Source of the DNA: Candidatus Latescibacterota bacterium
Lineage (GTDB): Bacteria > Latescibacterota > UBA2968 > GCA-2709665
Direction of reading: 5' to 3'
Assembly: GCA_965219455.1 (NCBI GenBank)
Contig: OZ244744.1
Location: forward strand, 3,264,001 to 3,328,000
DNA: 64,000 nt
Shown: one piece after another, positions 42,825 to 59,137 of the stretch
Position numbering within the stretch: the first letter of the stretch is position 1
Layout of the letters: every line of letters begins with the position of its first letter
Notes under the pieces: model-generated
What the model was told of the DNA's origin: nothing
What the model saw: the letters and a program-made list of their open reading frames with translations, nothing else
Databases searched by the model: none
Position numbers and translations under genes: made by a program

Positions 42825-44094
42825 CTTCTACCTCGACTTCCCACGTGTAAGCCGCGGCGCCGTTGTCGTTCTCCACGCGGCAGGTGACCGAATGTCTGCC
42901 CGCCCTGTCTGCCTCAAACCGCAGCGACCTGCCGTTTCCGGGCATCGTCCTGCCGTCCGATGTCCACGAAAACCGGAGTCCGGGATCTTCAGCTTCGTCG
43001 ACAGGTAATTCGGCGCACCCGACGTGGCGATACACCCCGTCGCCGTCCCGCTGGCGCGAGCCGTCCGGGGCGATCCAACCGTCGTCCAGGTCCCGCGCGG
43101 AATAGTACATCAGGTATCTGCCCGGCAATTTCAATACGTGCGGGGTGGACGTGTACCTGCCGTCGAACGCATCCCTGCGCGAGTTCGGGGGAAACGTCGG
43201 CACGTCGTTCTGGTAGTACCAGGTGCTGCCGTCGCGGGTGCGCCCGAACGAAATGTCGAAGGCGCCGCCCGCCCGGTGACCGCCGAACCACATCGCCAGT
43301 TCGTCCCGATCGCGCACTACGAAAGGATACACGCACGAGCGATAGATCCCGCCGTACCGAACCGCGTCTCCCACCGTGTCCCAATGCAGACCGTCCTCGG
43401 ACCGGGCCGAAATGATGTTTTCGGTCATCTTCAGATCCGGGGTGTCCACAGACGGGGCGTTGACCCACATTCTGTACGTCCCATCATCCTGTTTCATCAC
43501 GCATGGACGCCGCCCAGTACGCAGCACCGGCTCCGGGTGGAACGTCCATGAAATCCCGTCGGGACTCTCGCCGTATCCCACCCGCTGGTTCAACCACGGA
43601 CTGCCCTCCCGGTCGCTCTCATCCACCGCCGTAAACCACATCTTGTATATCTTATCCTGTAGATCGTAAAGCACACAGGGCGACTGGAAACGCCAGCCCC
43701 AGGGAATCGCATGGTCGGTCACGATCGGATTGTCGGGATATGCCTCCCAGTTCAATCCATCACTCGACACGGCGTACCCGAGGTGGATGTACGAAGGACC
43801 GCGAGCGTGGTCGGAACTGCCCACGTACCACATCTTGTAGATGCCGTCCAGTCTCAGCACGCAGGGCATGTAGAGGAGCACGCGGCACCAGTCCTGACGG
43901 GTCGTCGCTGCCGACAGGATGGGCTCGGACTGACGCCGCCACACCTGCCCTGTCGGGAGGCATTGACAGGGCTCGACATCGAGACGCAGGTCCACAGCGC
44001 CTCCGGCCTTGACTGAAATCCGCGGACCGGTCGGATTGATCCCACAGATTCGGGGCAAATACCACTTCGGCCCTTCGAGAACACTCGCTGCCAC
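42817..44094 (-). CDS. Five-bladed beta-propeller (GH-like) with Ig/PKD-like flanks
   Basis: YKMWY..LGYAVSSDGLNW...NPIV blades. C-term FSW...HSVTCRV.N..G....TWEVEV. Confidence 0.7.
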   Translation of the reverse strand: MAASVLEGPKWYLPRICGINPTGPRISVKAGGAVDLRLDVEPCQCLPTGQVWRRQSEPILSAATTRQDWCRVLLYMPCVLRLDGIYKMWYVGSSDHARGPSYIHLGYAVSSDGLNWEAYPDNPIVTDHAIPWGWRFQSPCVLYDLQDKIYKMWFTAVDESDREGSPWLNQRVGYGESPDGISWTFHPEPVLRTGRRPCVMKQDDGTYRMWVNAPSVDTPDLKMTENIISARSEDGLHWDTVGDAVRYGGIYRSCVYPFVVRDRDELAMWFGGHRAGGAFDISFGRTRDGSTWYYQNDVPTFPPNSRRDAFDGRYTSTPHVLKLPGRYLMYYSARDLDDGWIAPDGSRQRDGDGVYRHVGCAELPVDEAEDPGLRFSWTSDGRTMPGNGRSLRFEADRAGRHSVTCRVENDNGAAAYTWEVEVEDG

Positions 44095-44112
44095 CCGTAT
44101 TACCTCCGTGTG

Positions 44113-45066
44113 CTATTCCCCGCGGGGTCGATATCTGGGCGTGAACGCCCGTCCATAGAACAGCGGCATAAGCTCATACGGTACGTGGTCGGTCCGCCCG
44201 AGTGACTCCATGCCGCCGAACTCGTAGTCTGAATGGACCAGCCGCGAGAGCATGATGAGCCGTTCCTTGTCCGTTTCGATGTTGATGGTTCGGTGCATGA
44301 GGGGCCCGTCGGCGAACAGCAGCGCAGACCCCCGCTTTGCCGTGGTCTGATGGAAGAACTCGGAATCCGGATGGTCCGTGATGTACTGCTTCAAATCGTC
44401 GTATGAGAGGTCGAGTCTGTGGCTCCCCGCAAAGATCCCGGTACCGCCGTCACCGGGCCCCACGTCCGTAAGGTAGAGAATCATGCCGAGGATCTGCGTA
44501 TGGAACCAGCCATTTTTTCGAACTGCCCGGTCCTTGTGCCGCGTCACCCCGCCGTGCCAGCCCAGAACGGGGGTTTCGGAACGCCGGTTGAAGCGGACGG
44601 CGACCTGGTGGAAGCGGAAGGTCCCGCCCAGCAGTTCGGTTGCGATCCCCAGGACGCGCGGCCTGGTCAGTACGGACAGGTAGATGGGGTCCAGCCCCAG
44701 CACGTTCTCGATCTCCAGACGTTCGACGTGAAGGCCGCCCGAAGCCGTCCTTCTCCGGTTCGCCCGCCAGATCGCCCCGTCCCTGAAGTCCTCGTATTTT
44801 TTGGGCGGCGGCGGCGGCGTGATCTCCTTGTCGCCTACTGCGTCCAGGATTTCCGCCTTCATCTTGTTGGCTGAAGCCTCTATGGACTGCAACTCCCGTT
44901 CGGTAAACAGATCCTCGACGATAGTGTACCCGAACAACTCGAACCGCATCCGCTGTTCCAGCGTCAGGGCCGGGTATGGATAGTCGGGTTCGGTCTGCGG
45001 GACGTCCGAGAACCCGAATCCGGGATTCGGCGCTGTATACTCGGTTTTTGTTGCTGTCTCCGCCAT
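44113..45066 (-). CDS. Phytanoyl-CoA dioxygenase (PhyH) family Fe/2OG enzyme with HxG motif
   Basis: LTLEQR.RFE.FGY, WHGG, YLTDVGPGDGGT...GSHR, MHRT, ER. Confidence 0.88.
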   Translation of the reverse strand: MAETATKTEYTAPNPGFGFSDVPQTEPDYPYPALTLEQRMRFELFGYTIVEDLFTERELQSIEASANKMKAEILDAVGDKEITPPPPPKKYEDFRDGAIWRANRRRTASGGLHVERLEIENVLGLDPIYLSVLTRPRVLGIATELLGGTFRFHQVAVRFNRRSETPVLGWHGGVTRHKDRAVRKNGWFHTQILGMILYLTDVGPGDGGTGIFAGSHRLDLSYDDLKQYITDHPDSEFFHQTTAKRGSALLFADGPLMHRTINIETDKERLIMLSRLVHSDYEFGGMESLGRTDHVPYELMPLFYGRAFTPRYRPRGE

Positions 45067-45126
45067 TTTTATGCACCTCCAGTGACATGACTCGTCAGGA
45101 AGTTAGGGGTATGAGCGTGCCCGTCC

Positions 45127-45954
45127 CTACGATCGGACCCAATGCCGGAACAGGGGTTTCACCTTTTCATGCATGGTATCATAGACTTCCAGCGGTACGG
45201 GCGGGACCTCGGGCGCATTCAACCCGGTTGCTTCCAACATCCGGGCCCGCTCTTCGGACCCGGGCATCAGGACATCGGTGGCGAGCCACCAGGGCGCGTA
45301 CCGGATCACAACCGACACACGCGGCGTGTCGGAGCGGTTGGGCGCCGTGGCGTGCCAGAGCCGGCTGTCCAGCATCAGCACGCTTCCCGCGTCGCCTTGC
45401 GCGTTGCACTCCCCGGGAATCGTGCCGAGCGGGTCGAATCCGTTCTCCCCGCTTGGATTGTTGTTCGAACGGTGGCTGCCGGGGAGAATGAGCGTTCCGC
45501 CGTTTTCCGCACTGAAGGGGGAGAGCATCCATAGCGTGGTGAGGTGCATCACCACATCGGGATAAGGCGCGGGTAGGTGCCCGGCGTTGTTCTGGTTGAA
45601 GGGCCAGTCGGCGTGCCACACGCCGCGCGGATTTTCCGGGAAATTCACCGTTGCGGTCGTGAAAGAGATCCGGGCGTGGTCGCCTAACATGCCCTTGACG
45701 ACACCCATGACCCGGGAATCCGCCACATAGGGCGCGAACGACTGCTCGCGGGCCACGAATCCGGAGACGTGCCCGATGCCTTTGTCATCGAGAGTTTCGG
45801 CATTCGCGTGCCGATGCACGGCATCCATAACGCGCGCGCTCACCGCCGCGACCCGGTCCTGGGGGACGACGTTCCTGACGACACACCAGCCGTTGACGCG
45901 CATCTGATTCAGTTCGCTCTTCATTTGATCGACCGCACATGCTCCTGAATCCAT
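45127..45954 (-). CDS. Phytanoyl-CoA dioxygenase (PhyH) family Fe/2OG enzyme (canonical HxD)
   Basis: WHADWP, ENGGT..LPGSH, DSRLWHA...N.SD.PR. Confidence 0.92.
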   Translation of the reverse strand: MDSGACAVDQMKSELNQMRVNGWCVVRNVVPQDRVAAVSARVMDAVHRHANAETLDDKGIGHVSGFVAREQSFAPYVADSRVMGVVKGMLGDHARISFTTATVNFPENPRGVWHADWPFNQNNAGHLPAPYPDVVMHLTTLWMLSPFSAENGGTLILPGSHRSNNNPSGENGFDPLGTIPGECNAQGDAGSVLMLDSRLWHATAPNRSDTPRVSVVIRYAPWWLATDVLMPGSEERARMLEATGLNAPEVPPVPLEVYDTMHEKVKPLFRHWVRS

Positions 45955-46006
45955 ATAGGTACCCTCTTCGATAAGTGTGACGGCACTCAAGCCGCCGCGC
46001 ACCCGC

Positions 46007-48019
46007 TCAGGGTTGCAGGATCCAGATCCCGCCCACTTTTCCGGTGATGCTGTCGATGACGATCCACATCCCCAGGCACACCGCCTCACCCAGGATAATT
46101 CCCATGAAAAACGGTCTGGTCATTCTGTAGAGATTGGCTCCTCCGAACCGCAGCACGAGCGCCTTGATTCCCCAGGCGAGAAACACGCTGAAAAAGTAAT
46201 TATGCGTAAAGGCGATCGTACTCACCGGCAGCGCCACCGGGTGCAGCGGCCACCACGGGAGGCGCGACCGGAGCGACATCAGAACGACGACAACGGCGGC
46301 CCCCAGCGCCGTGTAAAGAAATCCGGGGTAGAAGATCGGAGTCGGTGAGAGCAACCGGCGCCCGATGTATTCGTCGAACGGCAGCGCGCAATCGTTTACG
46401 TCCCTGAACCAGTAATCCAGGTTGCGGCCGCCGTGCTCGTATCCCAATTGAAGCGTCGTATAGCTTGCGGTGGCGAGGCCCGCCGCAAGCGCGGCGCCCA
46501 TCGCCAGGACCAGCCCCCGCTTGCGTCCGATCTCCCGTGCGAGTCTGAGTGCGCCCGAGGCCCGTGGCATCAGCGTATTCAGCCGGGTCATCGTCCAGGC
46601 GAAGCTGACGCCAAGAGATGTCAGCCCCGTTGGGCTGAACGCCGCGGAACCCACCGCGCACACCACGAACTCTGACGGGTTCAGCGGGGCGTAGGTCACC
46701 GAATAACCGGTCTCGCTCACGATTCGGGCGAGAACCAGAAAGACGACAAAACAGAAAAAGCCCAGCAGCAGGACGAGATGGGGAGAGATGCCCGCCTGGT
46801 AGAGCCAGCATCCGAGATACAGGGTCCCCGCAACGATCCCGGCCACCGCGGAGCGGTAGGGGATCACCTCGTCCGAATCGTCCAGGCGTGACGGGCGGCC
46901 CATCGCCCTGGCCCACACCTCGCGAAGGTGCGCCCTGGCGATCCACAGACTGTACCCCGCCAGGGCGAGCATATAGCCCATGCCCATCATCGCCAGGAAT
47001 TCGGATCCCTGGGAACTGTGCCGGCCCACCACCCCGGAAACGCCGTATGTTTCCGCCCCCACTATGGCCAGAATTCCGCTGACGCACTTGGCGATCACGT
47101 TGAACAGCCAGATGCTCAGACTCACGTCCGTATTCACGAAATACGAGTACCCAAGGATCGCGAAATGAAGGCCGATATGCAAGGGAATCGCGCGGCGGAA
47201 GATCCAGATCACCGTTCTCAGCGGAATCCGGGGCAGGGAGTAGTAGTACCTCTGAAGCCCGTTCAACAATCCGATCAGAAACGGAACCGCGAATCCCCCC
47301 CACATCATCCTGTTGCGGAACAGGGGCCCCACCTTTCGCGGGCCCGCCTCGCTCATCTCCAGCGGCACCTGCATGATGGGAAACGCAAACCGTTCGTGCT
47401 CTTCCCACTGCTTCCTCATCAGGACCGCCAGGCAGACGAGCACGATGTAGAGTACGACCAGGAACGACCCCCAACTCCACAGGGGAACCACCCACGTCCA
47501 CCAGGGCACCGGGTCGCCGGCGGGAAGACCGTCGTACAGCCCCGTTACCGCTTGCGTATCCAGGTTCGACAGCCAGGGAAGGGCATTGGGCAACACGGCT
47601 TCCAGGTGCCGCATTTCCGGCGAGGCATAGTAGGTGACGCCCGTCATAAAGCCCAGCAGGGCCTTGGTGATTTTCCACGACGGCATCAGAAACAGCAACA
47701 TGACGTAGATGGCCAACAACTCGCCCCGCCCCAGCGCATATCGGCGCTTCAGGGCCGCCGCCAGTGGGTTTACGGCCAGAACAAGGACGAAGAAAACGAA
47801 CAGCACGCCCCGGTCCATAAAGTAGCTGCCCATGAAGGGCCCCTGGACGACCATACGGTTGTGCGTCAGCGCGACACCAAGGAACACGCAGAGGAGGAGC
47901 CCGATCAGGAAAGCCCGCAACGTCAGACCGTCCCGTGAAGACGCGAGATGATTCTCCGAAGACGCGTGTTGTTGTGGGTCGGCCCGATTCCACAGGCTTC
48001 GGGCTTGAGAGCCTTCCAC
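46007..48019 (-). CDS. DUF6785/DUF6784 polytopic membrane protein (putative transporter)
   Basis: LT.RAFLIG, VPW..WV.PL..W, RKQW...ERFAFP, R...ETG, WWPLHP...W..K..VLRFGG...PFF.GIILG. Many TM helices. Confidence 0.85.
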   Translation of the reverse strand: MEGSQARSLWNRADPQQHASSENHLASSRDGLTLRAFLIGLLLCVFLGVALTHNRMVVQGPFMGSYFMDRGVLFVFFVLVLAVNPLAAALKRRYALGRGELLAIYVMLLFLMPSWKITKALLGFMTGVTYYASPEMRHLEAVLPNALPWLSNLDTQAVTGLYDGLPAGDPVPWWTWVVPLWSWGSFLVVLYIVLVCLAVLMRKQWEEHERFAFPIMQVPLEMSEAGPRKVGPLFRNRMMWGGFAVPFLIGLLNGLQRYYYSLPRIPLRTVIWIFRRAIPLHIGLHFAILGYSYFVNTDVSLSIWLFNVIAKCVSGILAIVGAETYGVSGVVGRHSSQGSEFLAMMGMGYMLALAGYSLWIARAHLREVWARAMGRPSRLDDSDEVIPYRSAVAGIVAGTLYLGCWLYQAGISPHLVLLLGFFCFVVFLVLARIVSETGYSVTYAPLNPSEFVVCAVGSAAFSPTGLTSLGVSFAWTMTRLNTLMPRASGALRLAREIGRKRGLVLAMGAALAAGLATASYTTLQLGYEHGGRNLDYWFRDVNDCALPFDEYIGRRLLSPTPIFYPGFLYTALGAAVVVVLMSLRSRLPWWPLHPVALPVSTIAFTHNYFFSVFLAWGIKALVLRFGGANLYRMTRPFFMGIILGEAVCLGMWIVIDSITGKVGGIWILQP

Positions 48020-48059
48020 TCGTTCTCCCCTTTTTCAACGGACTGTTATGGACGACATA

Positions 48060-49082
48060 TCAAGTCCTGGGGCACACGGCCACGCCGATGTGGCGGTAGA
48101 TTCCAGCTTTATCGATGCCCAGCGTGTCCGCTCCGGTTCTATAGAGGGTACCCCAGTCCCTGGCGGAATAGTACATCAGGTAGCGGTCCCCGCCGTCGAC
48201 GACACACGGCGTGGAGGTATACCGCCCGTCGTAGTCGACGGGATTACGCGTCGCCGGCAGGGCGGGCGTGTCCTGGTGGTGGGTCCAGTTCAGGCCATCG
48301 GCGGACGTCGAACAATATATCTCGAATACGGGGCGAACCAGGGGGGTGTCGGCACCCGCGTCAATCAGCACTTCGCCTTCGGCAGGCCAGGCCCCGTACC
48401 ACATGATATATCCGTCACCGTCCCGCATAACGAAAGGATAGATTGTGCCCCTGAGCTTCTCGTTGAAGCTTACGGCGGGTTCGGGGTCCCGCGTCCACTC
48501 GATGCCGTCGGAGGACTCGAATCGATAGATGTGCCGGACCAGATCGTCGAAGCTTCCATCCGGCGTCGGCGATGAGTTCATCCACATCCGGTAGGCGCCG
48601 GGACCGTCCTTGATCACGCACGGACGTCGTCCGCTGTGATAGATCGGCTCGGGATGAACGTCCCATTTCAGCCCGTCGCGGCTGGTGGCATAACCCAGTT
48701 GCTGCTCGAAGCTCACGAGCCAGGTTGGACCGCCCCGGACAACGGTCGACATAATGAACCACATTTTGTACAGGCCCTCGTCCGCGTCGAAGATCACATG
48801 GGGCGTCTGCCAGGCGTCGCAGGCGGGCAGATCGTCGCGGGTGAGGATGGGGTTGTCCGGGTGCTCGTTCCAGTGGATTCCGTCGTCCGACTCGGCGAAG
48901 CCCACGACCGAATCGTCTGTACGGGTGGCGGTACTTTGAGCGATGTACCACATCATGTACCTGTCCGCCACGCGGACCACCGTCGGATTGTAGAGTTCAA
49001 CCCGGCACCAGTCCTGCCGGGTGGTCAGGGCAGACAGAACCGGCTCTTCCCGTCGCTGCCATTTCGCAAGATGCATGGACAT
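48060..49082 (-). CDS. Five-bladed beta-propeller protein (GH-like)
   Basis: Blade repeats MWY..GFAESDDGIHW..HPDNPIL. Paralogue of 42817..44094 and 10408..11409. Confidence 0.75.
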   Translation of the reverse strand: MSMHLAKWQRREEPVLSALTTRQDWCRVELYNPTVVRVADRYMMWYIAQSTATRTDDSVVGFAESDDGIHWNEHPDNPILTRDDLPACDAWQTPHVIFDADEGLYKMWFIMSTVVRGGPTWLVSFEQQLGYATSRDGLKWDVHPEPIYHSGRRPCVIKDGPGAYRMWMNSSPTPDGSFDDLVRHIYRFESSDGIEWTRDPEPAVSFNEKLRGTIYPFVMRDGDGYIMWYGAWPAEGEVLIDAGADTPLVRPVFEIYCSTSADGLNWTHHQDTPALPATRNPVDYDGRYTSTPCVVDGGDRYLMYYSARDWGTLYRTGADTLGIDKAGIYRHIGVAVCPRT

Positions 49083-49211
49083 GTATTCAGTCCCTTCGCC
49101 AGCGTCGAGCCGCGCCACTTCCCGGCACGACGGATTTACTGCCTTATTCGCGAATCAATCATCTCAGCTCCGCACAATGGCTTGTGGAGCCGTTGAGGAA
49201 GCGTGTGTGAA

Positions 49212-49237
49212 TGTGGGGCAGACACTTCTGTCTGCCC
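49212..49237. repeat. REP-like palindrome
   Basis: TGTG-GGGCAGACA-cttc-TGTCTGCCC. Confidence 0.55.
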
Positions 49238-49369
49238 TTCTCATTGACTTGAGTAAGGAAACTACTTTTTTTGTGAATTGTCCAGATTAAACACGTTCGC
49301 CGCCGCTCATGCCTGTCCGGTGTTCCATTCTGGCGACTCGGTCAATTGATGATGGGAAGCCCGGGCCGT

Positions 49370-50596
49370 TCACCCGGGTCCGGCAAAGCCCGCAAGGGTG
49401 CCGGACAGTTCCTCGATCGATATTGCCTGCTTCTTCAGGGGGCGCGAGGCCATGGTGCAGGCAGTCTCGCGATACCCGGAACCGCTCACGACGGCAACCA
49501 CGAGATCCCCCGGATCCACACGTCCCGAATCCAACAGCCGGGCTGTGCCGGCCAGGCAGGCACCCGTGGACGGCTCCACGAACAGCCCTTCCTGCCGCCC
49601 GCAAAATTCCTGGGCCGTCAGGGCCTCCTCGTCCGTGACGGAAATGAAATTTCCCCTCGACGCACGTAGGGTCCGGAGGGCTTCCATTCCGTCGGGGGGA
49701 TAGCTGTGGGCAAGCTTCACAAGAATTGAGGGCGGCGGGTTGTCATAGGGCAGCGCCAGTACCTCTTTCCATTGTTCCAGCCCGCGTTCGAAGGCTAACT
49801 CGAGTGCGTTGTAGTCACGAGGAACCACGCCAATCATTCTGGGAAGGGAGTCAATAAGCCCGAGCGCGTGGCAATCCCGGAACCCCCGCCAGACACCCGA
49901 AACCGTACCGCCGCCACCCACGGGAACCACCACCCAGTCCGGCGCCCTGCCAAGTTCCTCCACGATCTCGTAGGCGATGGTCTTGTTCCCTTCGGACTGG
50001 TACGGATTGGAGTTCCGGCTGGTGGTGCTCAGATAGAGTCCCTGGCTGCGGCAGACGGCAATAACCCCTTCCACGATCGGGTCGATCTGTGCACTCACCT
50101 CGAGAAGCGTTGCGCCCAGGCCGAACATCGGGTAGAGCCGTTCGGGCGGCGTTCCCTCGGTCATGACGACCACGCTGCGCATTCCGGCGCGTGCTGCGAG
50201 GGCGGCGTTGGAGATGCCGGCGCTTCCCGTTGACACAATAACGGAAACATCCGCGCCAATGGACTTTCCGTGTGTGATCGCGACCGAGAGAGAACGGTCC
50301 TTATGGGACCCGGTGGGATTGCGGGTTTCGTCCTTCAGATAGACCTGGCGTCCGTTGAAGCTTTGTGCGGGCAGAAGGGGCGTGCCGCCTTCACCCAGGG
50401 TAACGGCCCCATCGGGAGCGTCGACCGGAAGCAGGGGCCAGTAACGCCACATGGTCCCCTCGAAGCGGTCGTCCCATGTAACCTCGTCATAGCTGTATCG
50501 GAACCCCAGCGGCCCGCCGCAGAGACCACAGTTCAAGGCCGCGGCGTCCTGTTGTTGTGCATCGCACTGAAGGCAAATCTTATGAAATCGACCCAC
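49370..50596 (-). CDS. Threonine synthase-like PLP-dependent enzyme (fold II)
   Basis: N-terminal CxxC...CxxC, TLGEGGTPL, NPTGSHKDR (PLP Lys), KTIAYEI, PVGGGG, EPST. Confidence 0.85.
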   Translation of the reverse strand: MGRFHKICLQCDAQQQDAAALNCGLCGGPLGFRYSYDEVTWDDRFEGTMWRYWPLLPVDAPDGAVTLGEGGTPLLPAQSFNGRQVYLKDETRNPTGSHKDRSLSVAITHGKSIGADVSVIVSTGSAGISNAALAARAGMRSVVVMTEGTPPERLYPMFGLGATLLEVSAQIDPIVEGVIAVCRSQGLYLSTTSRNSNPYQSEGNKTIAYEIVEELGRAPDWVVVPVGGGGTVSGVWRGFRDCHALGLIDSLPRMIGVVPRDYNALELAFERGLEQWKEVLALPYDNPPPSILVKLAHSYPPDGMEALRTLRASRGNFISVTDEEALTAQEFCGRQEGLFVEPSTGACLAGTARLLDSGRVDPGDLVVAVVSGSGYRETACTMASRPLKKQAISIEELSGTLAGFAGPG

Positions 50597-50852: not shown

Positions 50853-50874
50853 AACCACGATTGTTCCGGAAAAC

Positions 50875-51828
50875 TCAGAACGCCCCGCTCAGCGTGAACC
50901 TCAATGGGGCATTCAGGTACGCGCCGAAATCGCCATAGGCGATATCCGCCTGCACCACACGGCCGTCCGCCATCGTGAATTTCAAACCGGCCCCGAGCGT
51001 CCAGGACTCTTCGTCGAAGTTGATCTTATATCCTCCACGCAGCGCGACCGAGTTCTGGATCCAGAACTCCGTGCCCACCCGGTACTGAACCTCCGCGAAA
51101 TCCGTCGCGTAGTAGTTCTCGCCCGTCAACGTCAGATACCCCGGGTCGCCTCTGGAACCGAAAATCTCCATTGCCGCCGCGGTGCTGAAGGACACCGGCA
51201 TATGCGCGACCGACTCGAGCACCTTGACGTCTCTGCCCAGGTTCTCGAACGTCATCCCCAGGCGAAGGCTCTTGAAACCGGTGTAAAACAGCGTGGAAAT
51301 CGACACGTCGAACGCAGTCAACCGGTCCGTGTCCAGCGTTTCCTGCGTCCAGCGGAACAAGGAGCCCACCGAAAGTTTGTCCGTCAGCTTTTTCGCGTAG
51401 GCCACGCCCAGGGACAGATCGCCCATATCCGGTTCCCGGCCCGTGCCCGTGGGCTGAAAAATGGTTGTCTCCTCGAACCCCTTGGGTCTGAATGTGACCA
51501 CGCTCAAACCCACAACCCCGTACCCGGTCTTGAAGGCCAGGCCGCCGTTCAGAATGTGGTCGTTCATCAGCCATCGGGTGTATCCGAGCGTGAACGCGGA
51601 CCCCTCGATATGCGTCAACCCGGCCACATTTGAAAAGATGGCATCGATATTGTCCGATACGGCCACAAACGAACCTCCCATACCGGCCATACGCGCTCCA
51701 TGATCGATCTTCAGTACGGGAAGGACCATCCGCGAGAGCCGCCTCTGATCCTGGGCATCTGCTCCCCGTGGATAGAGCAGGGCGCAGATCACCACCGCTG
51801 TCAGTCCGATCCACAACGTCCGTTTCAT
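50875..51828 (-). CDS. PorV/PorQ family outer-membrane beta-barrel (T9SS-associated)
   Basis: Signal peptide, LKIDHGARMAGMGGSFVAVSD...AIFSN.AGL PorV signature, terminal Phe. Confidence 0.88.
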   Translation of the reverse strand: MKRTLWIGLTAVVICALLYPRGADAQDQRRLSRMVLPVLKIDHGARMAGMGGSFVAVSDNIDAIFSNVAGLTHIEGSAFTLGYTRWLMNDHILNGGLAFKTGYGVVGLSVVTFRPKGFEETTIFQPTGTGREPDMGDLSLGVAYAKKLTDKLSVGSLFRWTQETLDTDRLTAFDVSISTLFYTGFKSLRLGMTFENLGRDVKVLESVAHMPVSFSTAAAMEIFGSRGDPGYLTLTGENYYATDFAEVQYRVGTEFWIQNSVALRGGYKINFDEESWTLGAGLKFTMADGRVVQADIAYGDFGAYLNAPLRFTLSGAF

Positions 51829-51887
51829 CGTGTACTCTCCTTAAGTTTCAGTATGGACCTGAGCCGTGCAGAAATAGAGATCTGCCC

Positions 51888-54170
51888 CTATTTGATGATC
51901 ATCAACGTGCCCGACTGTGTCTGGCCCTGGCTTCCCGACATCTGCGATTCCAGCACCCAGTAATAAACCCCCGCGGGCACACCCCCTCCGCGCGAGTCGG
52001 GGATCTGGTTCCAGGAGGCCTCGCCTCTGCTGGGATCGTTGTGTCTGATCACGGCGGCAAGCTCTCCGGCCACCGTATAGATCCGGATAATGCACTTTTG
52101 GGGGACGTTGGTAAACCGCATCAACCCCGCCGTGGGGTAGTTGTGAGCGCCGTCCGCCTTGTGCGGGTTGGGTACAACGATCACGTCCCGCTGCATCTGG
52201 TCCGCCGCCGCGTTGGCCGGCACAAACGGAATATTGGTCAGCACGCCGTTTGCCCACTGCTCGGGCGAGCTGTTCCCACCCTCTAAGGAGGGAATGGCCA
52301 TCCCGGTCCCGTTCCAGTCGTCGTGGCCCGAGTCATAGGCCGCAACGCGGTAGTAATATTCGAATCCCGCCACCGACTTTCTGTCCTCATATTCATAGCC
52401 GCCCCCCTTATAGTATTGGGAATCCTTCAGGGGGACTTCGGCCACGAGTTTCCAGTCGTCAACCTTGAAGTCCGACCGGTAGACCCGGTAGCCCACGATG
52501 TCCTGGGCCTCGGCGCCCGAGTAGTCCGGATCGGTCGCATCGTCGCCCGCGTCGGTCCATTTCGCCAGGTTGAACCCGTCGACCGAGGCGGTCGCCTCCA
52601 CCTTTACGTCCGGCGGAGGATCGGGCAGGTCATAGCCCCACCGGAAGGCGTCGCTGGCCGCGTTGTGGTGTTTGAGCAGGTTGTCCATCGCCTTATCCGT
52701 GTACATGTCCTCCTGTCTGCCCTGCTTGGCCCAACCCCACATGTTCTCCTCCACCGGGGCGGCCGCCACCAGGGCGTAGACGATTCTCACCTTGTCGCCG
52801 GGGGCCAGGTCGTACGGGCCATAGGCGAACGAAGCGGTGAGCCCGTCTATCGTGGTGGGATTGTCCTTTATGAATGGCGCAGGACTCGTCAGTTCGGTAT
52901 AGATCTGCTCGGAACTCCTGCTCTCCGAACCGGGTTCAGAGAAATCGGTTCGGTCCCGATAGTCCCACCACTTTACGGTGTGGGGCTGGTCCGCGACCCG
53001 TGGCGCCACGAAGCTCGCCTCGCCTCCGGTGTCGTAGGTGAAGGTTGACGGATCGTTCACCGACCCGGGCGTGTACGCGAGCGGTGCAGCGCCCACGTAC
53101 TGGTAGGACCCCATTTCCCCCTCCACCTTCGTGTGCCTGAGGCAGCAGCTGTGCCAGGACTCGTAGGCCCGGTTCGCGCTGTAGGGCTTGCCGATGTCCT
53201 CCCCGGGTAGATCCGGATTTTCCCCATCAAAGGAGTACCACATCTTCAACCCCATGGCCGCGCCCGGACCGTCGAAGTTGGCCGCCTCCGTGTACTTGTA
53301 CCAGTCGTCCAGAGCTATCGGTTCCGTGGCCCTGAAGTAGGAGTTCCCCGTATAATTTCCCTGGCCGCACCCGGAGACGTAGAAGCGGGTCGAGAAGATG
53401 AAGAACGTGTCGTTGAGCTGCAGCCCTCCACCGCCCAGATCGGCCGCACCGTCCCCATCGGAGTCACCGGTATTTTCGAACGTGTATTCCAGGATCTCAA
53501 AATCGTCGTAGTCCGGATAGCTCCACACATACGCCTTCTTGGTAACGGTAATGCCGTTCCTGGTGGTCCATTTGCTGACGATGATGCTCTCCGGGAAATG
53601 GTCCTTGTCCGCTTCCATATACTCGCCGTACCGGTAGTTGTGGATCTCCACCGGCTCGTTGGGGCCCGGAGGGGCCTGCCCCGGCCACCAGTTGGCCATG
53701 ACCGGACCCAGGGGCGATACCTTCCGGTAGCCGATATTCATCTCAGGCCCCTGGGAAGGATCGTAGCCCATTGCAACCACGTCCTCCGACTCCAGGGTCG
53801 CTTTCGACTCGGAGACGTGGAACTCGCCTCCCACCTGCGTGGCGATGAACTGGTTCCAACCCGGCATCGTGCCACACATTTCGCCGTTCCAGCGCCTCCA
53901 CTGAGATCCCGGCCCCCAATTCCGTTGACTCCAGTAGTCGATAAACTCCTTCGGGTACTGCGTCCACAGATAGCCGGGATACTGCATGCCAACGGGACGG
54001 TACCAACTCATCGGTGTGGCCGCCCGCACCCCCTGGGTGCCCACGTTCCAGTAAATATCCCACACCTTCGCGCGGGACTGGATCCGGAGCTCCTGCGCCG
54101 GGACATCGCTCCAGAGCAGCAGGCCCAGAACCAGGAACACCATCCCGCATACCATAATCTTTTTCATCAC
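51888..54170 (-). CDS. Secreted surface protein with FN3-like domain and T9SS type-A-like C-terminal domain
   Basis: Signal peptide, PDPPP...GYRVYRS...YYYRVAAYD (FN3). CTD VIVVPNP...IRIYT..GE...W......GVYYW...GTLMIIK. Confidence 0.8.
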   Translation of the reverse strand: MMKKIMVCGMVFLVLGLLLWSDVPAQELRIQSRAKVWDIYWNVGTQGVRAATPMSWYRPVGMQYPGYLWTQYPKEFIDYWSQRNWGPGSQWRRWNGEMCGTMPGWNQFIATQVGGEFHVSESKATLESEDVVAMGYDPSQGPEMNIGYRKVSPLGPVMANWWPGQAPPGPNEPVEIHNYRYGEYMEADKDHFPESIIVSKWTTRNGITVTKKAYVWSYPDYDDFEILEYTFENTGDSDGDGAADLGGGGLQLNDTFFIFSTRFYVSGCGQGNYTGNSYFRATEPIALDDWYKYTEAANFDGPGAAMGLKMWYSFDGENPDLPGEDIGKPYSANRAYESWHSCCLRHTKVEGEMGSYQYVGAAPLAYTPGSVNDPSTFTYDTGGEASFVAPRVADQPHTVKWWDYRDRTDFSEPGSESRSSEQIYTELTSPAPFIKDNPTTIDGLTASFAYGPYDLAPGDKVRIVYALVAAAPVEENMWGWAKQGRQEDMYTDKAMDNLLKHHNAASDAFRWGYDLPDPPPDVKVEATASVDGFNLAKWTDAGDDATDPDYSGAEAQDIVGYRVYRSDFKVDDWKLVAEVPLKDSQYYKGGGYEYEDRKSVAGFEYYYRVAAYDSGHDDWNGTGMAIPSLEGGNSSPEQWANGVLTNIPFVPANAAADQMQRDVIVVPNPHKADGAHNYPTAGLMRFTNVPQKCIIRIYTVAGELAAVIRHNDPSRGEASWNQIPDSRGGGVPAGVYYWVLESQMSGSQGQTQSGTLMIIK

Positions 54171-54197
54171 CTAGACCTCCTCAAAGATGTCCAACAG

Positions 54198-54230
54198 GGT
54201 TGGGCCCTCCGTTACCGGAGGGGTTCAACC
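54198..54230. other. Intercistronic stem-loop between TBDR and CTD-protein genes
   Basis: GGTTGGGCCCTCCG-ttac-CGGAGGGGTTCAACC, no U-tract. Confidence 0.5.
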
Positions 54231-54233
54231 GCG

Positions 54234-57200
54234 TCAGAAATTCAACCTGATCCCCACGTGGGTAATCCGGGGATTGCCGATGTAGCGCGAGCGGTCAGAT
54301 AAGTCCCCGTAATTCAGGTAGTTCGCATCGTCGGGCCTGGGCTGCTGCAGGCCCCACCACATGTAGTCCGTCCGGGTGACGCTACCCGCGTCCCTCTGGT
54401 TGAACACGTTGAACATTTCCACAAATACGTCGGTATTCACGCCCCCCAGGCGGAAATGCTTCTGCACGTTCAAATCGGCTTCCGTGTGCAGGGGCCCCCT
54501 CGCCGGTGTGTTCTTCCCTTCCAGGTTGAGGTAATTGAACTTGCCGCCCGTGTAGATCCGGTAGATCAGGTTGATGTTGATGCCGCCCAGGAGCGTGGCT
54601 CCGCCCATTTTTCTACCCGGCCCGAAGTCCAGCGGGGAGGAGAAGAACATCTGCAGGCTGCCCTGGCTCCGGCGCCCCCGCGTGAAGATGTTTCCACCAC
54701 TGAACCAGAACTTCTGATACCAGATGCCCTGCAGGTAATCCTTCGCCTCGTCCGGCACCCCCGAAGCTTCCCACGCTGGCAGAATGTCGGGCACGGCACC
54801 CCTATTATTGAAGGCAAGCCGGTCGTTCCTGACCTTTCTCAGGTTCTCGTTGGCCTTATGGCCAAGCTCCCGGATCTCATCGGTCGTGAGCGGCACCGGC
54901 TCCCTCCGGCTGCCTGATACCCGCCATTCCTTATGGTACTTCCCGCTGGCGATGAAGCTGGAATCGGGATAGACCAGGATGCTCGCGACGGATTCGGGAG
55001 AGCCCAGCCAGTGGATGGCCTCCAGCCACTCCAGGTTCAATGCGGCCCGGAACGAGAAAAGGTTGCTGAATCCCTTCCTCATGCTGAACTCGAAGCCCTT
55101 GACGTCCTCCGTGCGCTCGGAGCCATACGTGCCGCCTATGGCGCCTGTCCTGCCGGTCACCGGGTCGACGGCGTCGTGCCAAATCCCCGTGCTCTGGGAC
55201 TGGCCACTCTTGTAAAAGGCGGCCAGCGAGAGCACGTAGTCGCTCACGAAGTTCCAGTCGGTGCCCACCTCAAAGCTGTTGGTCGGATGCCCCCGGTCCC
55301 AGACCGGGCTGACAGCGTTCGCGCCGTAGCTTTCGTCCTTGGCATTGAACTGACTGTATGGTACACCCGGAATCCCCACGGGACCCGAGGCCGTCTCCCA
55401 GTGGCTGCCGAACTGGTGCCGGAAGGAGGGGAGCATCATATACCGGCCGTAGAAGAAGTGCATACTGGACCTGGCCGTGATGGGGTGCGAGATTCCCAGC
55501 CTGGGGCTCCATCCGGATATGGGCCGCATGGGACCCGTGGGCGCCTGGATGAAGGTATCCAACGCGTTGTACCATCCCGACGTGAACGTCGGCAGCAACT
55601 GAACGTCCTGACCCCACATGCGGTCGTAGCGCAGTCCGACGTTGACGATCAACCCCTCAAACTCCATCTTGTCCTGGACGTAGACACTGAACTGCCTGGG
55701 CGTCACGGCCTCGCCGGGTTCGGGCTGTCCGATGTAACGGATATCCCGCTTCGCATCGCCGGGCGTCATGCCGGTCCACGTCCACCAGTTCTCGAACGTC
55801 ATGAACTCAAAGCCGGTCTTGGCAAAGTGTCCGCGAGTCGCCTGGCTGGACAGATCGGCCTTCACGCTGTATCGGTTCTGTTCACCGACCTTGAAGGCCC
55901 AAACGTCGTCTCGGCCGATGTAGAAAAACCCGTCGCTGTCCGTCCTGACGGCCGTAGTTGCATTCCCCACGCCGCTCGTGTCGGTCCTGCTGCGGTAGCG
56001 CGACACACTCACCTCGTAGAACGTCCTGGGGTTGACGGTATGGGTGAGAACGCCGTAGACCATGTTGTCCAACTGGGATTCCGTCCCGGCGACCGACCCC
56101 TCGGGAATGAAGAGATCCCGCCCGGTTCCTCGGAGGATGTTCGGGAAGCTGTACCTGGACAGCCGTCCGTTGTTGATTCCCTCCGACCAGTCGTACATCC
56201 ATCCGATCCGCAGTTTCATGTTCAGCCCGGCGGGGACCGTCAGCTTCGCCGTGGTCCGGATGTTCGGCGGGCGGGTGCGCCACGGACCGGGGAGAACGGC
56301 GGCGTCGCGAAGGTGACGGGCGCTGGCGAAGAACGAAGCCTGCCCGAATAGCGGGCCGCTCAGAAACCCGTCGAGGTAGTGGCCTCTCCAGTCTGTATAA
56401 TTGGTTCGCTGGTGCACCAGATTTCCGGTCTCGGGGTCCACCTCGGAAGTCCAAGCTGGATCGTTCCACTTCGCGTTCCCCCGCAACTCCGGCGCCTCGT
56501 AGACGTCCGCCCCCCAGTGCTTCTTGCCGCCAGGAGTGAGACGGTACTCCCCCTCGCCGTGGTAGTCGGCGCCGCCGTCGCGCGTTACAATCTGGATGAC
56601 GCCCGCCTGCGCGTTGCCGTACTCGGCGTTCATTCCGCCGGTGATGACCGAGACCTCCTGCACCGCCTTGAGGTTGACGCCGTACCATTGCCTTTCGCCG
56701 CCGTCGCCCCATCCACCGCCGATGCCGCGTCCGTCTCTACCGGATACGGGGACGCCGTCGACGTAGACCACGTTGTGGCTGGCAACCCAACCCCGGATGG
56801 CGCCGCTGCCGTCAACGGCATAACCCGGCTCCAATTCCAGAACCTCGGTGACGTTCCTTAGAATGGGCGTTCGCTGGATCTCCTCGGCGGTTACGACGTA
56901 ACGGCTGTCCGTCTTGTCGGGGTCGACCGCCGGCCTTTCCGCCACGACCACCATCTCCTCGAGTTCCAGTTCGGATTCACGAAGCTGGAAGTCTACGGTC
57001 GTGGTGAAGTCCACCCGGATAGCCACCTTTTCTTTGACCACGGAGTGATACCCCACCATTGAAGCCGTCAATTTGTACTGCCCCGGCGTTACGGAAACGA
57101 TGACGTAGAATCCATCCACGTCGGTCGTTCCCCCCAGCCGGGTCTCTTCGATCGCCACGCTGGCCCCCGGCAGGGGCTCTCCTTGCTCGTCGGTCACCCG

Positions 57201-57302
57201 GCCCACAATTTTACCGGTTGTCGCGGCCGTTACCACGCTGGCGACAAAAAACACGGACCACAACACGGCCACAGCGCCCGTCATAAACCTTTGCCTTCTC
57301 AT
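54234..57302 (-). CDS. TonB-dependent receptor with N-terminal carboxypeptidase-regulatory-like domain
   Basis: TTGKIVGRVTD..GEPLPGASV, EMVVVAE TonB box, TGGMNAEYGNAQAGVI.IVT plug, Y.QDKMEF, SPRLGISHPIT, NPR...G..LNF end. Confidence 0.92.
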   Translation of the reverse strand: MRRQRFMTGAVAVLWSVFFVASVVTAATTGKIVGRVTDEQGEPLPGASVAIEETRLGGTTDVDGFYVIVSVTPGQYKLTASMVGYHSVVKEKVAIRVDFTTTVDFQLRESELELEEMVVVAERPAVDPDKTDSRYVVTAEEIQRTPILRNVTEVLELEPGYAVDGSGAIRGWVASHNVVYVDGVPVSGRDGRGIGGGWGDGGERQWYGVNLKAVQEVSVITGGMNAEYGNAQAGVIQIVTRDGGADYHGEGEYRLTPGGKKHWGADVYEAPELRGNAKWNDPAWTSEVDPETGNLVHQRTNYTDWRGHYLDGFLSGPLFGQASFFASARHLRDAAVLPGPWRTRPPNIRTTAKLTVPAGLNMKLRIGWMYDWSEGINNGRLSRYSFPNILRGTGRDLFIPEGSVAGTESQLDNMVYGVLTHTVNPRTFYEVSVSRYRSRTDTSGVGNATTAVRTDSDGFFYIGRDDVWAFKVGEQNRYSVKADLSSQATRGHFAKTGFEFMTFENWWTWTGMTPGDAKRDIRYIGQPEPGEAVTPRQFSVYVQDKMEFEGLIVNVGLRYDRMWGQDVQLLPTFTSGWYNALDTFIQAPTGPMRPISGWSPRLGISHPITARSSMHFFYGRYMMLPSFRHQFGSHWETASGPVGIPGVPYSQFNAKDESYGANAVSPVWDRGHPTNSFEVGTDWNFVSDYVLSLAAFYKSGQSQSTGIWHDAVDPVTGRTGAIGGTYGSERTEDVKGFEFSMRKGFSNLFSFRAALNLEWLEAIHWLGSPESVASILVYPDSSFIASGKYHKEWRVSGSRREPVPLTTDEIRELGHKANENLRKVRNDRLAFNNRGAVPDILPAWEASGVPDEAKDYLQGIWYQKFWFSGGNIFTRGRRSQGSLQMFFSSPLDFGPGRKMGGATLLGGININLIYRIYTGGKFNYLNLEGKNTPARGPLHTEADLNVQKHFRLGGVNTDVFVEMFNVFNQRDAGSVTRTDYMWWGLQQPRPDDANYLNYGDLSDRSRYIGNPRITHVGIRLNF

Positions 57303-57391
57303 GGTTCCTCCTTTACACAGCACTCATTTCGCTTGCGAGATTCTCCAACTGAGATCCAACGGCCTGCCAATTACCGGTTACGCCTGCATTG

Positions 57392-58108
57392 CTATTTCCT
57401 GAAATAAAACCGGATGCCTCCGCGCGCATTCAGGAACTGCATGGGAAAGGTCTGGCCGTCGAGGTCCCACGCCTCCATAGGCCTTAACTCGCCCAGCAGG
57501 AGATTGTATCGGGCGCGTACATCCAGCGAAATGTTGTCGAACACAAACGCCTCGACACCCACGCCCACGTTCGCCCCCAGCGCCGTGCGCGAATCGCTGA
57601 AAGGGTCTATCACCAGCTCCTTGTTTATTGGCGCCTCGCGCTGGCCGGGAAAGATCAGGCCGCGCACATCCGTCTTGTAGTCGTAAAACCCGGCGCCGAC
57701 GGTTACGTACGTGGAATAGTTCTCTTTGGCCAGGATTCCCTTGCCTCCCCGCCGGACCACGGCATTCACGAGGAAGCTGCTGATCCGCATCTCGCTCACC
57801 GCATTGGGGGACATATAGTCCTTCTGGTCCACGGGCCAGGTAAACGGGCGGTTCTCGAGTGCTCCATTGTCGAATTTGGACCGGTGAAACTCCATCTCCA
57901 CGCTGGTCCTCTGGCTCATAACGTAGGTGAACACGACCCCGACCTCGCCACGGCCGGTTTCGTACCAGTCTTTCAGCTTGAAGATCGACCGGTTATAATC
58001 CAGGAACGTCCCGAGGCCCCAACTGCCGGCCACACCGCCGCCGTAGACCGTTCCCGCCGAGAGCAGCAGCAAAGCCGCTGCCATACATACCAGCACACCG
58101 TTACGCAT
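57392..58108 (-). CDS. Outer-membrane beta-barrel protein (OmpA/OmpW-like, about 8 strands)
   Basis: Signal peptide, Y.TVGAGFY, GANVGVGVE, GIRFYF end. AGGAGG SD. Confidence 0.8.
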   Translation of the reverse strand: MRNGVLVCMAAALLLLSAGTVYGGGVAGSWGLGTFLDYNRSIFKLKDWYETGRGEVGVVFTYVMSQRTSVEMEFHRSKFDNGALENRPFTWPVDQKDYMSPNAVSEMRISSFLVNAVVRRGGKGILAKENYSTYVTVGAGFYDYKTDVRGLIFPGQREAPINKELVIDPFSDSRTALGANVGVGVEAFVFDNISLDVRARYNLLLGELRPMEAWDLDGQTFPMQFLNARGGIRFYFRK

Positions 58109-58363: not shown

Positions 58364-59128
58364 TCATGGATGGCCTGCGTGACCGTTTTTTCCCTCCAGA
58401 GCGAGGATCAGCGCGCGGACGCTGGCCATCTGGCTGTACATGATTGCCGTTGCCTTCGCGCCGTCGCGGTCGGTAATCGCGTTGACAATGGCGCGATGTT
58501 CCGAGATGGCAATCCTTCCGGAATCTCGAGCAGACAGTCGCTCGCCGAATACCGGAATGTCTATGTCGTAGGCTTTCAGTCGCAACGCCTCCGTAATGAG
58601 GTCTGCACATCGTTGCAGCACCGGGTTGTGCGTTGCCCGCAACACGGCGCGATGAAAGCGAATTTCGTACGCCATCATACCCTGATCGAAGTCCAGCGCC
58701 TTGAAGTCGGCAATCTCACTCAGATCCGCCAGGTCTTCTTCCGTCGCATTTTCGGCCGCCATGCCGGCCGCCGCCATCTCGACGGAAATGCGCAGCGCAT
58801 AAATGTCCGTGCGGTTGGAGATGGACGGGAAAACATCGAGATGGCCGTTTTCGAGAGGGCTGATGTCCACGGTTCTGACAAATGTGCCGCGCCCCTGCTG
58901 CCTTGTAACGACGCCTTCACCGACAAGAACCGCCAGAGCCTCGCGAACGACCCGATAGCTGACGCCCAGATTGGCTGCCAGGATCCGTTCGGGCGGCAGC
59001 CGATCGCCTTTTTCGAGCTTTTCAACAAAAATGAATCGTCTGAGAATTGTGACAACCTGATCTGCCAGGGTTTCCCTGGAGACCGGTTTCAATTCGTCCA
59101 TATTGACAGACGGTTTCACTTCTGGCAT
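58364..59128 (-). CDS. GntR/FadR family transcriptional regulator
   Basis: GDRLPPER.LA..LGVS..VVREAL..L...G......GRGTFV, and FCD domain FHRAV..AT.N...EHRAI. Confidence 0.93.
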   Translation of the reverse strand: MPEVKPSVNMDELKPVSRETLADQVVTILRRFIFVEKLEKGDRLPPERILAANLGVSYRVVREALAVLVGEGVVTRQQGRGTFVRTVDISPLENGHLDVFPSISNRTDIYALRISVEMAAAGMAAENATEEDLADLSEIADFKALDFDQGMMAYEIRFHRAVLRATHNPVLQRCADLITEALRLKAYDIDIPVFGERLSARDSGRIAISEHRAIVNAITDRDGAKATAIMYSQMASVRALILALEGKNGHAGHP

Positions 59129-59137
59129 AATGAGAGC

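Follow-up and report, generated by a model that had tools for sequence, protein, structure and literature searches.

A 64,000-nt stretch of a Candidatus Latescibacterota chromosome (contig OZ244744.1, positions 3,264,001 to 3,328,000; hereafter the window) carries a cassette of four genes that encode a small outer-membrane protein (OMP) barrel (P1), a TonB-dependent transporter (TBDT), a signal-peptide protein whose tail resembles the C-terminal domains (CTDs) of type IX secretion system (T9SS) cargo (P3), and a barrel of the PorV/PorQ family (PorVL). The TBDT-P3-PorVL order is kept in at least three phyla, and the three genes co-diverge as a unit. We are inclined to read the cassette as an uptake module that operates without SusD, in which P3 is the surface partner of the transporter and is tethered by its cognate PorV paralogue, as PorZ is by PorQ. 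This reading is drawn from six modules of the same order in one genome, synteny, co-divergence, a census of CTDs, a complex prediction, the modelled fold of P3, the lack of SusD, the presence of SprA together with type-A CTDs, the neighbouring genes and a precedent among PorV-like barrels.

The window comes from a 5.84-Mb genome that is complete in a single contig. The four open reading frames (ORFs) are tightly packed at 50875-58114, with intergenic gaps of 59-68 bp. A preliminary description of this DNA had reported four co-oriented genes, and they were found on the minus strand as it stated; the end that it gave, 58108, is the ATG at codon 3 of the first gene. The genes are as follows.

57392-58114, minus strand: small OMP barrel P1, 240 aa, likely ATG at 58108 (codon 3); first gene of the module
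54234-57323, minus strand: TBDT, ORF of 1029 aa, likely start Met8 at 57302
51888-54170, minus strand: P3, 760 aa, with a signal peptide
50875-51828, minus strand: PorVL, 317 aa, PorV/PorQ-family barrel

Comparison of the four cassette proteins with all ORFs of the genome by phmmer returned six paralogous copies of the module in the same gene order, five of them headed by one of five P1 paralogues.

Genome 3314875-3322114, minus strand: module copy of the window
Genome 1379976-1386623: module copy
Genome 2007259-2014918: module copy C
Genome 4146988-4154471: module copy
Genome 4323106-4330671: module copy
Genome 3663652-3671885: module copy F

The genome-wide count of such trios that the preliminary description had proposed as a check gave these six TBDT-P3-PorVL sets. 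In copy F the small barrel and the TBDT are separated by an additional 223-aa gene (genome 3664390-3665061; L125:791-1462), with Temptin_C, EF-hand/dockerin-like and weak cytochrome-c-like matches.

A P3 profile recovered 306 stretches from species-representative genomes, and we inspected the 80 best loci among them. The TBDT gene lay directly upstream of P3 in 79 of the 80, the sole miss (L092) being a contig end, and the PorVL gene lay downstream in 79 of the 80, the sole miss (L019) being a sequence that stops 155 nt past P3. The small barrel was found upstream of the TBDT in 64/80 loci, and 3 of the 16 misses had no upstream DNA. Conserved synteny in relatives, another point on which the first proposal could have failed, was present in this form, and with six copies in one genome and 79/80 related loci the occurrence of the module is far beyond chance. 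The 80 loci were mostly from Latescibacterota, with one from KSB1, one from Neomarinimicrobiota and a few labelled Gemmatimonadota. A P3 match at E ≤ 1e-20 was present in 91 of 151 sampled genomes of the phylum, and genomes in three families held five to seven P3 copies, with seven candidates scored per genome. In the Marinimicrobia phylum, 25/61 genomes had a P3 match at E ≤ 1e-40, mostly to proteins of 670-720 aa and over the C-terminal half of P3, and in all ten loci inspected, from ten genomes, the genes ran TBDT, P3-like, PorV-like on one strand. The trio was found in two of four KSB1 loci. Two of the related loci have a broken gene: in L075 the TBDT is in two pieces about 1.1 kb apart, which may reflect an insertion, and in L063 PorVL is in two overlapping ORFs, which may reflect a frameshift.

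Pairwise identities among 25 non-redundant modules were correlated between TBDT and PorVL (r 0.92), TBDT and P3 (r 0.89), and P3 and PorVL (r 0.87; Mantel p 0.001). Correlations of this strength indicate, at the level of sequence, that the modules duplicate and diverge as units, as linked genes would do to some degree anyway.

P1 matched the OMP_b-brl family (PF13505) with an E-value of 1.5e-7 and 32.2 bits (cut-off 28.7), and its look-alikes in the ESM Atlas were generic OMP_b-brl clusters. The TBDT has a signal peptide, an N-terminal CarboxypepD_reg-like domain, a plug and a large barrel; CarbopepD_reg_2 scored 71.2 bits and Plug (PF07715) 45.3 bits against a cut-off of 23.9, and no Pfam barrel model matched the barrel. 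The AlphaFold2 (AF2) model of the protein had a pLDDT of 79.1 and a pTM of 0.78, and Foldseek aligned it with solved TBDTs at E-values of 2e-24 to 1e-20 (TMt 0.6-0.7). By its Plug match and its modelled fold, we consider this protein a genuine TonB-dependent transporter. It is not a member of the SusC/RagA family: the corresponding hidden Markov model (HMM; TIGR04056) scored 62.8 bits against a cut-off of 368.25 and covered residues 38-251 only, at the N-terminus. SusC chains appeared only at ranks 17, 28, 31 and 35 among the fold matches, and by fold the transporter is no closer to SusC than to siderophore receptors. The SusD_RagB model (PF07980) had zero matches in the whole genome and was positive in the B. 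thetaiotaomicron control, and the absence of SusD claimed for the cassette therefore holds genome-wide.

P3 and its predicted docking on PorVL

P3 is a non-lipoprotein with a Sec signal peptide that lacks a recognisable lipobox, and apart from a sub-threshold match to CHU_C no Pfam or NCBIfam family matched it. Its AF2 model (pLDDT 87.7, pTM 0.88) comprises three parts.

52635..54170, minus strand: signal peptide (about residues 1-25) and galactose-mutarotase-like beta-supersandwich (about 26-512), from the AF2 model and VIA-align
52326..52628, minus strand: FN3-like domain (about residues 515-615), assigned by Foldseek similarity to fibronectin type III tandems and by the strand pattern in the model
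51888..52190, minus strand: CTD (about residues 661-760, plus the stop codon), a seven-strand beta-sandwich in the model

A Foldseek search of the PDB with the entire P3 model gave low-TM multi-domain matches only (TMq ≤ 0.23) and was set aside; VIA-align was informative instead. The three best VIA-align matches of the N-terminal domain (root-mean-square deviation, rmsd, 3.3-4.1 over 239-274 aligned residues) were the glucoamylase 1lf6_A (Z 18.1, rmsd 3.3, 239 residues), the glucodextranase 1ulv_A (Z 17.4) and the GH94 phosphorylase 2cqs_A (Z 17.2). The supersandwich resembles the N-terminal sandwich domains of enzymes of the glycoside hydrolase (GH) families GH15, GH94 and GH65 and of GH116; the catalytic (alpha/alpha)6 domain of the GH15/GH94/GH65-type enzymes is absent from P3. 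Aldose epimerases aligned with Z scores of 11-13 over about 200-215 residues, and a GH174 fucanase with a Z of 13.2. The galactose-mutarotase-like supersandwich is meant here as a modelled fold only, with no function implied. P3 is all-beta, unlike the TPR-like helical fold of SusD.

The N-terminal domain is the most divergent part of P3 among the six paralogues (25-56% identity), which would fit a role in specificity, and residues E175, N178, E194, D223, E232, N233, D288, D289 and D315 are invariant or nearly so in the family. On the strength of the model, we regard this domain as a candidate substrate-binding, or possibly catalytic, surface domain, with the FN3-like domain as a probable spacer between it and the CTD. 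The family is large and unnamed, with 7051 clusters at E ≤ 1e-3, 2886 at E ≤ 1e-10 and 444 at E ≤ 1e-30 among 1.84 billion representatives, and every source name examined was "hypothetical protein", with one KSB1 label among ten distant relatives. Look-alikes of the N-terminal domain in the ESM Atlas were also unnamed clusters, for which the commonest phyla were Fidelibacterota, Zixiibacteriota and Gemmatimonadota.

The P3 tail gave a mixed result. The type-A CTD model TIGR04183 had 22 matches in the genome and zero at the six P3 loci, and CHU_C (PF13585; cut-off 27) gave 15.8 bits for full-length P3 and 20.4 bits for the CTD by itself. Among 21 non-redundant CTDs of the family, CHU_C matched 11 at E ≤ 0.01 (best 5.2e-7), Por_Secre_tail (PF18962) matched three and FlgD_ig one; a PDB sequence search with the P3 CTD profile returned nothing at E ≤ 1. 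When the P3 CTD alignment was compared by hhalign with the type-A CTDs of the same genome, the two matched with a probability of 94.8% (E 5e-8, 68 columns). Because of this profile-profile match and the seven-strand sandwich of the model, the tail appears to be a divergent T9SS-type CTD, to be assigned to neither type A nor type B. The hhalign match and the model agree with the preliminary description, which had a T9SS-type CTD at the end of a 760-aa signal-peptide protein, but the case is weaker than it stated, the curated HMM thresholds having been missed.

PorVL scored 140.3 bits with the PorV/PorQ family model NF033709 (cut-off 90), in line with the PorV-like barrel reported earlier, and a profile of its family matched the solved PorV structure 6h3i_F at an E-value of 1.8e-21. 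It failed both equivalog models, with 54.6 bits against 250 for PorV (NF033710) and 41.5 against 220 for PorQ (NF033711). Ten PorV-family genes in the genome lie above the family cut-off. A census with local HMMs found 30 CTD-bearing ORFs in the genome; all six P3-type CTD genes lie 11-82 bp from a PorV-family gene, and only one of the 24 type-A CTD genes adjoins one. The suggestion that each P3 has a dedicated PorV paralogue is borne out by this 6/6 count, by 79/80 related loci and by 10/10 loci of the Marinimicrobia phylum. The one type-A exception lies at genome 3839709-3843949, where the best candidate of the genome for a canonical PorV (3842903-3843949) precedes a gene for a 1042-aa FG-GAP protein that carries a type-A CTD, and a PD40/Peptidase_MA gene comes next; the PorV candidate and the FG-GAP gene form another pair of barrel and cargo genes.

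We then predicted the complex of PorVL residues 26-317 with P3 residues 510-760, both supplied as alignments. The ipSAE was 0.89 (0.89, 0.89 and 0.88 in separate runs), compared with 0.01 for the best of three controls, and the pair passed a mark that is reached by 58 of 80 solved complexes and by 2 of 110 mismatched pairs. The runs shared at least 76% of their contacts, and the pLDDT of the partners was at least 72. On the P3 side the confident interface involves the CTD only (residues 664-759), and on the PorVL side its segments include the invariant or nearly invariant residues W86, E120, T121, T122, P126 and G128. The P3 CTD is thus predicted to dock on conserved segments of PorVL, a prediction that supports binding and does not show it.

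Proposed mechanism, export and alternatives

Under the reading that we favour, P3 would cross the outer membrane by means of its CTD through a SprA-type translocon. The CTD would not be removed; the cognate PorVL would keep it bound for good, in the way that PorZ is held by PorQ and PorU by PorV in Porphyromonas, and this tether would keep the supersandwich at the cell surface beside the TBDT. There P3 may capture, and perhaps trim, a glycan or glycoconjugate and pass it to the TBDT for TonB-powered import, after which a DUF6785/6784 membrane protein and the flanking enzymes may take the substrate further, under a GntR/FCD regulator. A precedent for such an anchor is given in PMC10202324, in which the PorZ CTD stays bound to PorQ and the PorU CTD to PorV, a neighbouring PorP/SprF barrel is needed for type-B cargo, and the authors speculate that cognate PorV-like barrels shield CTDs from cleavage. 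A wider form of the proposal, which we offer only tentatively, is that SusD-less phyla of the Fibrobacterota-Chlorobiota-Bacteroidota (FCB) group (Latescibacterota, KSB1, the Marinimicrobia phylum and probably others) form a stable TBDT-P3-PorVL complex, possibly with the small barrel, in which the uncleaved CTD sits permanently in its dedicated PorV paralogue and P3 is the analogue of the SusD lid.

The genome has part of the machinery that this route would use. The SprA/Sov translocon is present (TIGR04189, cut-off 200; 494.8 and 133.6 bits, or 631 bits when read as one 2121-aa frame). The best PorU-like C25 peptidase, encoded by a 1953-aa frame that has a type-A CTD of its own, reached 213.4 bits where the cut-off is 420. 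The SprA neighbourhood yielded no further T9SS parts; its genes are housekeeping ones (HHH/ComEA-like, a CTP_transf_like cytidylyltransferase, Obg and DprA), the cytidylyltransferase being, as we take it, CoaD-like. The check for core T9SS genes came out divided, with SprA and the 22 type-A CTD matches on one side and, on the other, gldKLMN and PorP undetected by models that had no positive control. Either the T9SS motor is too divergent for models trained on Bacteroidota, or CTD export is powered differently here.

Several points weigh against the uptake reading. The best GldK match in the complete genome reached 87 bits against a cut-off of 350, and the matches are paralogues of FGE-sulfatase; GldL, GldM (TIGR03517, PF12081 and PF12080) and GldN had no match, and neither did PorP/SprF (TIGR03519). 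The control genomes used for the Gld and PorP models hold no T9SS, so these negatives are without a positive control and absence cannot be claimed. T9SS export of P3, which we infer, is unproven since gldKLMN and PorP went undetected, and the P3 CTD falls below the Pfam and NCBIfam cut-offs. That P3 acts as a lid or sits next to the TBDT in the membrane would be pure inference, and substrate capture is likewise conjectural; the residues that are conserved among paralogues, whose substrates presumably differ, could be catalytic, structural or metal-binding. PorV-cargo complexes have already been solved (6h3i and 8gl6-8gln), so the PorVL-CTD prediction may have succeeded through likeness to these known structures and not because this particular pair binds. 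Around modules B-F, most neighbouring genes are of the TPR, FG-GAP/ASPIC, FGE-sulfatase, peptidase or regulator kind and do not encode classic carbohydrate-active enzymes. The gene order at one KSB1 locus is PorVL-TBDT-P3, and another KSB1 locus (L119; G151:C427:1-16000) has six tandem P3-like genes with no TBDT or PorVL within its 16 kb. The P3-like proteins of L119, about 715-750 aa long, have the FN3 and CTD part of P3 but not its N-terminal domain, and that genome has 23 matches in all.

The matches to FGE-sulfatase, whose family resembles the C-terminal half of GldK, number 22 in the genome. Two such genes lie at genome 2005307-2007252, directly downstream of the PorVL of module C, and a cluster encoding proteins of 755-997 aa lies at 5.54-5.59 Mb.

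Among the alternatives, the one to which we give some weight, while thinking it improbable, keeps the anchoring by PorVL and makes P3 a surface enzyme that cuts a glycan or polymer for the adjacent TBDT. The supersandwich is the whole catalytic body of aldose 1-epimerases, at the Z scores of 11-13 given above, and was also matched by the GH174 fucanase (Z 13.2), and the family has many acidic and polar residues that vary little or not at all. However, the best matches of the domain are the non-catalytic N-terminal domains of GH15, GH94 and GH65 enzymes, with the (alpha/alpha)6 domain missing, and no enzyme-family HMM matched P3.

We think it quite unlikely that PorVL is instead a transient shuttle or a FadL-type channel, with the CTD cleaved, P3 released or attached to lipopolysaccharide, and PorVL perhaps admitting a hydrophobic or amphipathic substrate. 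PorV is a FadL homologue that shuttles cleaved cargo in Bacteroidota, as stated in PMC10202324 and PMC12578637, and a PorU-like C25 peptidase gene is present, although at 213 bits it is below the cut-off. A shuttle would have no need of one paralogue per cargo, whereas all six P3-type genes adjoin a PorVL gene and 23 of the 24 type-A genes adjoin none, and PorVL co-diverges with P3.

The possibility that the module is an export or assembly device, in which an Oar-like TBDT carries P3 over the outer membrane and PorVL receives it, strikes us as more doubtful still. We take the TBDT of the module to have the same domain order as Oar. Such a device would explain the missing PorKLMN, given that GldKLMN were not detected here, and according to PMC6434023 the Oar TBDT is needed for secretion of PopC in Myxococcus. 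Yet SprA and the 24 type-A CTD ORFs without an adjacent TBDT point to another route of CTD export in this genome, and the flanking catabolic enzymes, the membrane protein and, in one copy, TonB make up the context of an import locus. Least probable, in our estimation, is that these are merely co-regulated outer-membrane proteins of one pathway that form no physical complex: linked genes co-diverge anyway and contact with the TBDT is inferred, but order and adjacency are strict from 98% P3 identity down to matches of the C-terminal half only, across phyla, and the CTD-PorVL prediction passes its controls.

Surroundings of the modules

The preliminary description had placed a GntR gene and sugar-catabolic genes beside the cassette, and both were found, the regulator being of the GntR/FCD type and the flanking genes of glycan or sugar catabolism.

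58364..59128, minus strand: GntR/FCD regulator (PF00392, 62.4 bits; PF07729, 75.2 bits), directly upstream of the cassette
46007..48019, minus strand: DUF6785/DUF6784 multi-pass membrane protein (PF20581, 360.3 bits; PF20580, 93.9 bits), about eight hydrophobic segments in a crude scan
40950..50596, minus strand: co-oriented catabolic genes downstream of the cassette (PALP, two GH130-like, two PhyH-type dioxygenases, DUF4838/GH67N-like), a span that includes the DUF6785 gene

The GntR/FCD protein is a candidate regulator of the locus, and beyond its gene lie genes for a xylose-isomerase-like TIM protein, a GFO/IDH/MocA protein and an amidohydrolase. The two GH130 matches are weak, at 30.8 and 19.7 bits against a cut-off of 26. 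The genome has 23 paralogues of the DUF6785/6784 protein, five of which lie within 10 kb of a module, compared with an expectation of about 0.65 for 2.8% of the genome; with this enrichment, these proteins are candidates for the inner-membrane step of the pathway. Some of the paralogues are arranged in tandem, for example at genome 5784886-5788992 and 3250514-3260668, and they may be an uncharacterised family of inner-membrane transporters.

Genes next to the other modules encode a hybrid kinase, an AraC regulator, a ceramidase-like protein, an M24 peptidase, two FGE-sulfatase proteins, an FG-GAP/ASPIC protein, a heparinase II/III-like protein, a DegT aminotransferase, a gamma-glutamyltranspeptidase and many large TPR(+GWxTD) proteins; those of one copy include TonB, with amidohydrolase and GFO/IDH genes. 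The trios of the Marinimicrobia phylum are often flanked by type-A CTD proteins with GHL10/Golvesin_C or CBM9 domains. The proposed likeness to a polysaccharide utilization locus (PUL) consequently stands for the window copy and for the Marinimicrobia-phylum loci (GHL10, CBM9) but not for the other five copies, which mostly lack recognisable carbohydrate enzymes. The module family is best seen as a set of general nutrient-uptake units, with the window copy and the copies of the Marinimicrobia phylum pointing to glycans.

Counts from scans for terminator and promoter consensus sequences were not above those in shuffles, and these scans were discarded. The single terminator that had been reported for the cassette was not supported by them: there were 8 terminator-like sites compared with 6.3 ± 3.1 in shuffles, and the site at the PorVL stop codon was a weak one. 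Both flanks of the cassette carry a dispersed intergenic repeat with a 29-nt core, at 58212-58240 and 50667-50695, both on the minus strand, and the flanks align over about 47 nt. The core has about 120 copies in the genome (≤ 5 substitutions), distributed over both strands and often situated within 200 nt upstream of the start of a same-strand gene, and could be a promoter-associated element or resemble a repetitive extragenic palindrome (REP) or a miniature inverted-repeat transposable element (MITE). With so many copies genome-wide, the similarity of the flanks was rejected as a shared GntR operator.

Contigs from RNA libraries of three studies, in which some runs are labelled sponge metagenome, cover the cassette, with 0-3 letter differences per piece in runs X7 and X10; they show the presence of the cassette only, not a level of transcription. 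The summed contig depth per bin was higher over the cassette than over its flanks in 4/4 RNA runs. In X7 it was 7.5-28.5 over the cassette, 0-3.7 downstream (44000-50339) and 0-6.3 upstream (58582-63000), and in X10 it was 5.4-17.8 compared with 0-3.5. Depth was left unused as evidence for expression or an operon because the runs had been chosen for containing this stretch, each contig has one depth and DNA carry-over is possible. Joints in RNA contigs that skip or loop from about 50700 to 58250 were considered as a sign of excision, which was rejected since the dispersed repeat explains them.

Elsewhere in the window, a gene for an AbiEii-type nucleotidyltransferase toxin lies at 35612-36598 on the minus strand (PF08843, 111.9 bits), and an ORF without a Pfam match at 36580-37395 overlaps its start; the two may form a type IV toxin-antitoxin pair. 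The GC content of 2001-4000 is 0.453, compared with 0.55-0.64 elsewhere, and this segment is possibly foreign DNA or a region of RNA genes.

Relation to known systems

The SusC/SusD system explains the success of Bacteroidota in glycan foraging. TBDTs are abundant in Latescibacterota, KSB1 and the Marinimicrobia phylum (SAR406), groups that are commonly encountered in sponges, sediments and the ocean. If our reading is true, the module is a concrete architecture for substrate capture in uncultured relatives of Bacteroidota, and the large unannotated family of P3 acquires both a name and a partner. PorV-like barrels, known as secretion shuttles, would then serve as permanent docking platforms as well. 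How CTD proteins get across the outer membrane where PorKLMN is not detectable is a question that the module poses. Under the wider and more tentative form of the proposal, type IX parts would have a second, structural role in uptake machines, even in genomes where no PorKLMN motor is detectable, and a SprA-only route or a different energising system for CTD export would be implied. The host, a member of Latescibacterota, places the system outside Bacteroidetes, as had been claimed. The statement of the preliminary description that, to its knowledge, such a system is not functionally described agrees with our literature searches, which found no description of a TBDT-P3-PorVL module, including in passages of PMC4454575, PMC5317091 and PMC11495043, although supplementary gene tables may mention the genes.

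The module shares with SusC/SusD (RagA/RagB) a TBDT with an N-terminal CarboxypepD_reg-type extension beside the gene for a surface protein, many paralogous copies per genome and placement in catabolic loci with a regulator, and it probably works alike, by surface capture followed by TonB-powered import. It differs in that P3 is an all-beta supersandwich with no lipobox, a T9SS-type CTD and a PorV-family barrel of its own, and in that the TBDT fails the SusC/RagA model. The module is not a member of the Bacteroidota-type PULs, lacking susD; with its GH-like genes and GntR regulator, the window copy is PUL-core-like at most.

With the PorZ-PorQ and PorU-PorV pairs of Porphyromonas gingivalis, the module has in common a PorV/PorQ-family barrel that holds a retained CTD, the same interaction being predicted for PorVL and P3. 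Here, however, the genes of the pair are adjacent, occur six times and always follow a TBDT gene, PorVL is below the equivalog cut-offs, and the cargo has a carbohydrate-type sandwich fold rather than a sortase or lipopolysaccharide-presenting role. Type-B CTD cargo and its PorP/SprF barrels (SprB/SprF and PG1035/PorP) resemble the module in the clustering of cargo and barrel genes and in a CTD that is probably retained as an anchor (PMC10202324). The best Pfam similarity of the P3 CTD is to CHU_C, but it is below the cut-off and the CTD also aligns to type-A CTDs. The barrel beside P3 belongs to the PorV/PorQ family and not to PorP/SprF.

In BtuB-BtuG of Bacteroides, HasR-HasA and TbpA-TbpB, an extracellular partner captures a ligand for a TBDT, the same concept as in the module. 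Partners of the BtuG, HasA and TbpB type are lipoproteins or secreted hemophores of other folds, and we know of none that is tethered by a T9SS CTD and a PorV-like barrel, nor, to our knowledge, does Oar have an adjacent CTD protein or PorV-like barrel. Oar of Myxococcus xanthus is similar in being a large TBDT outside Bacteroidota that has a CarboxypepD_reg domain at its N-terminus and is linked to a secreted protein (PMC6434023). We conclude that the closest systems are SusC/SusD for the probable job of the module and PorZ-PorQ, PorU-PorV and type-B-CTD/PorP for the probable way in which P3 is held, and that the module is a member of none of them.

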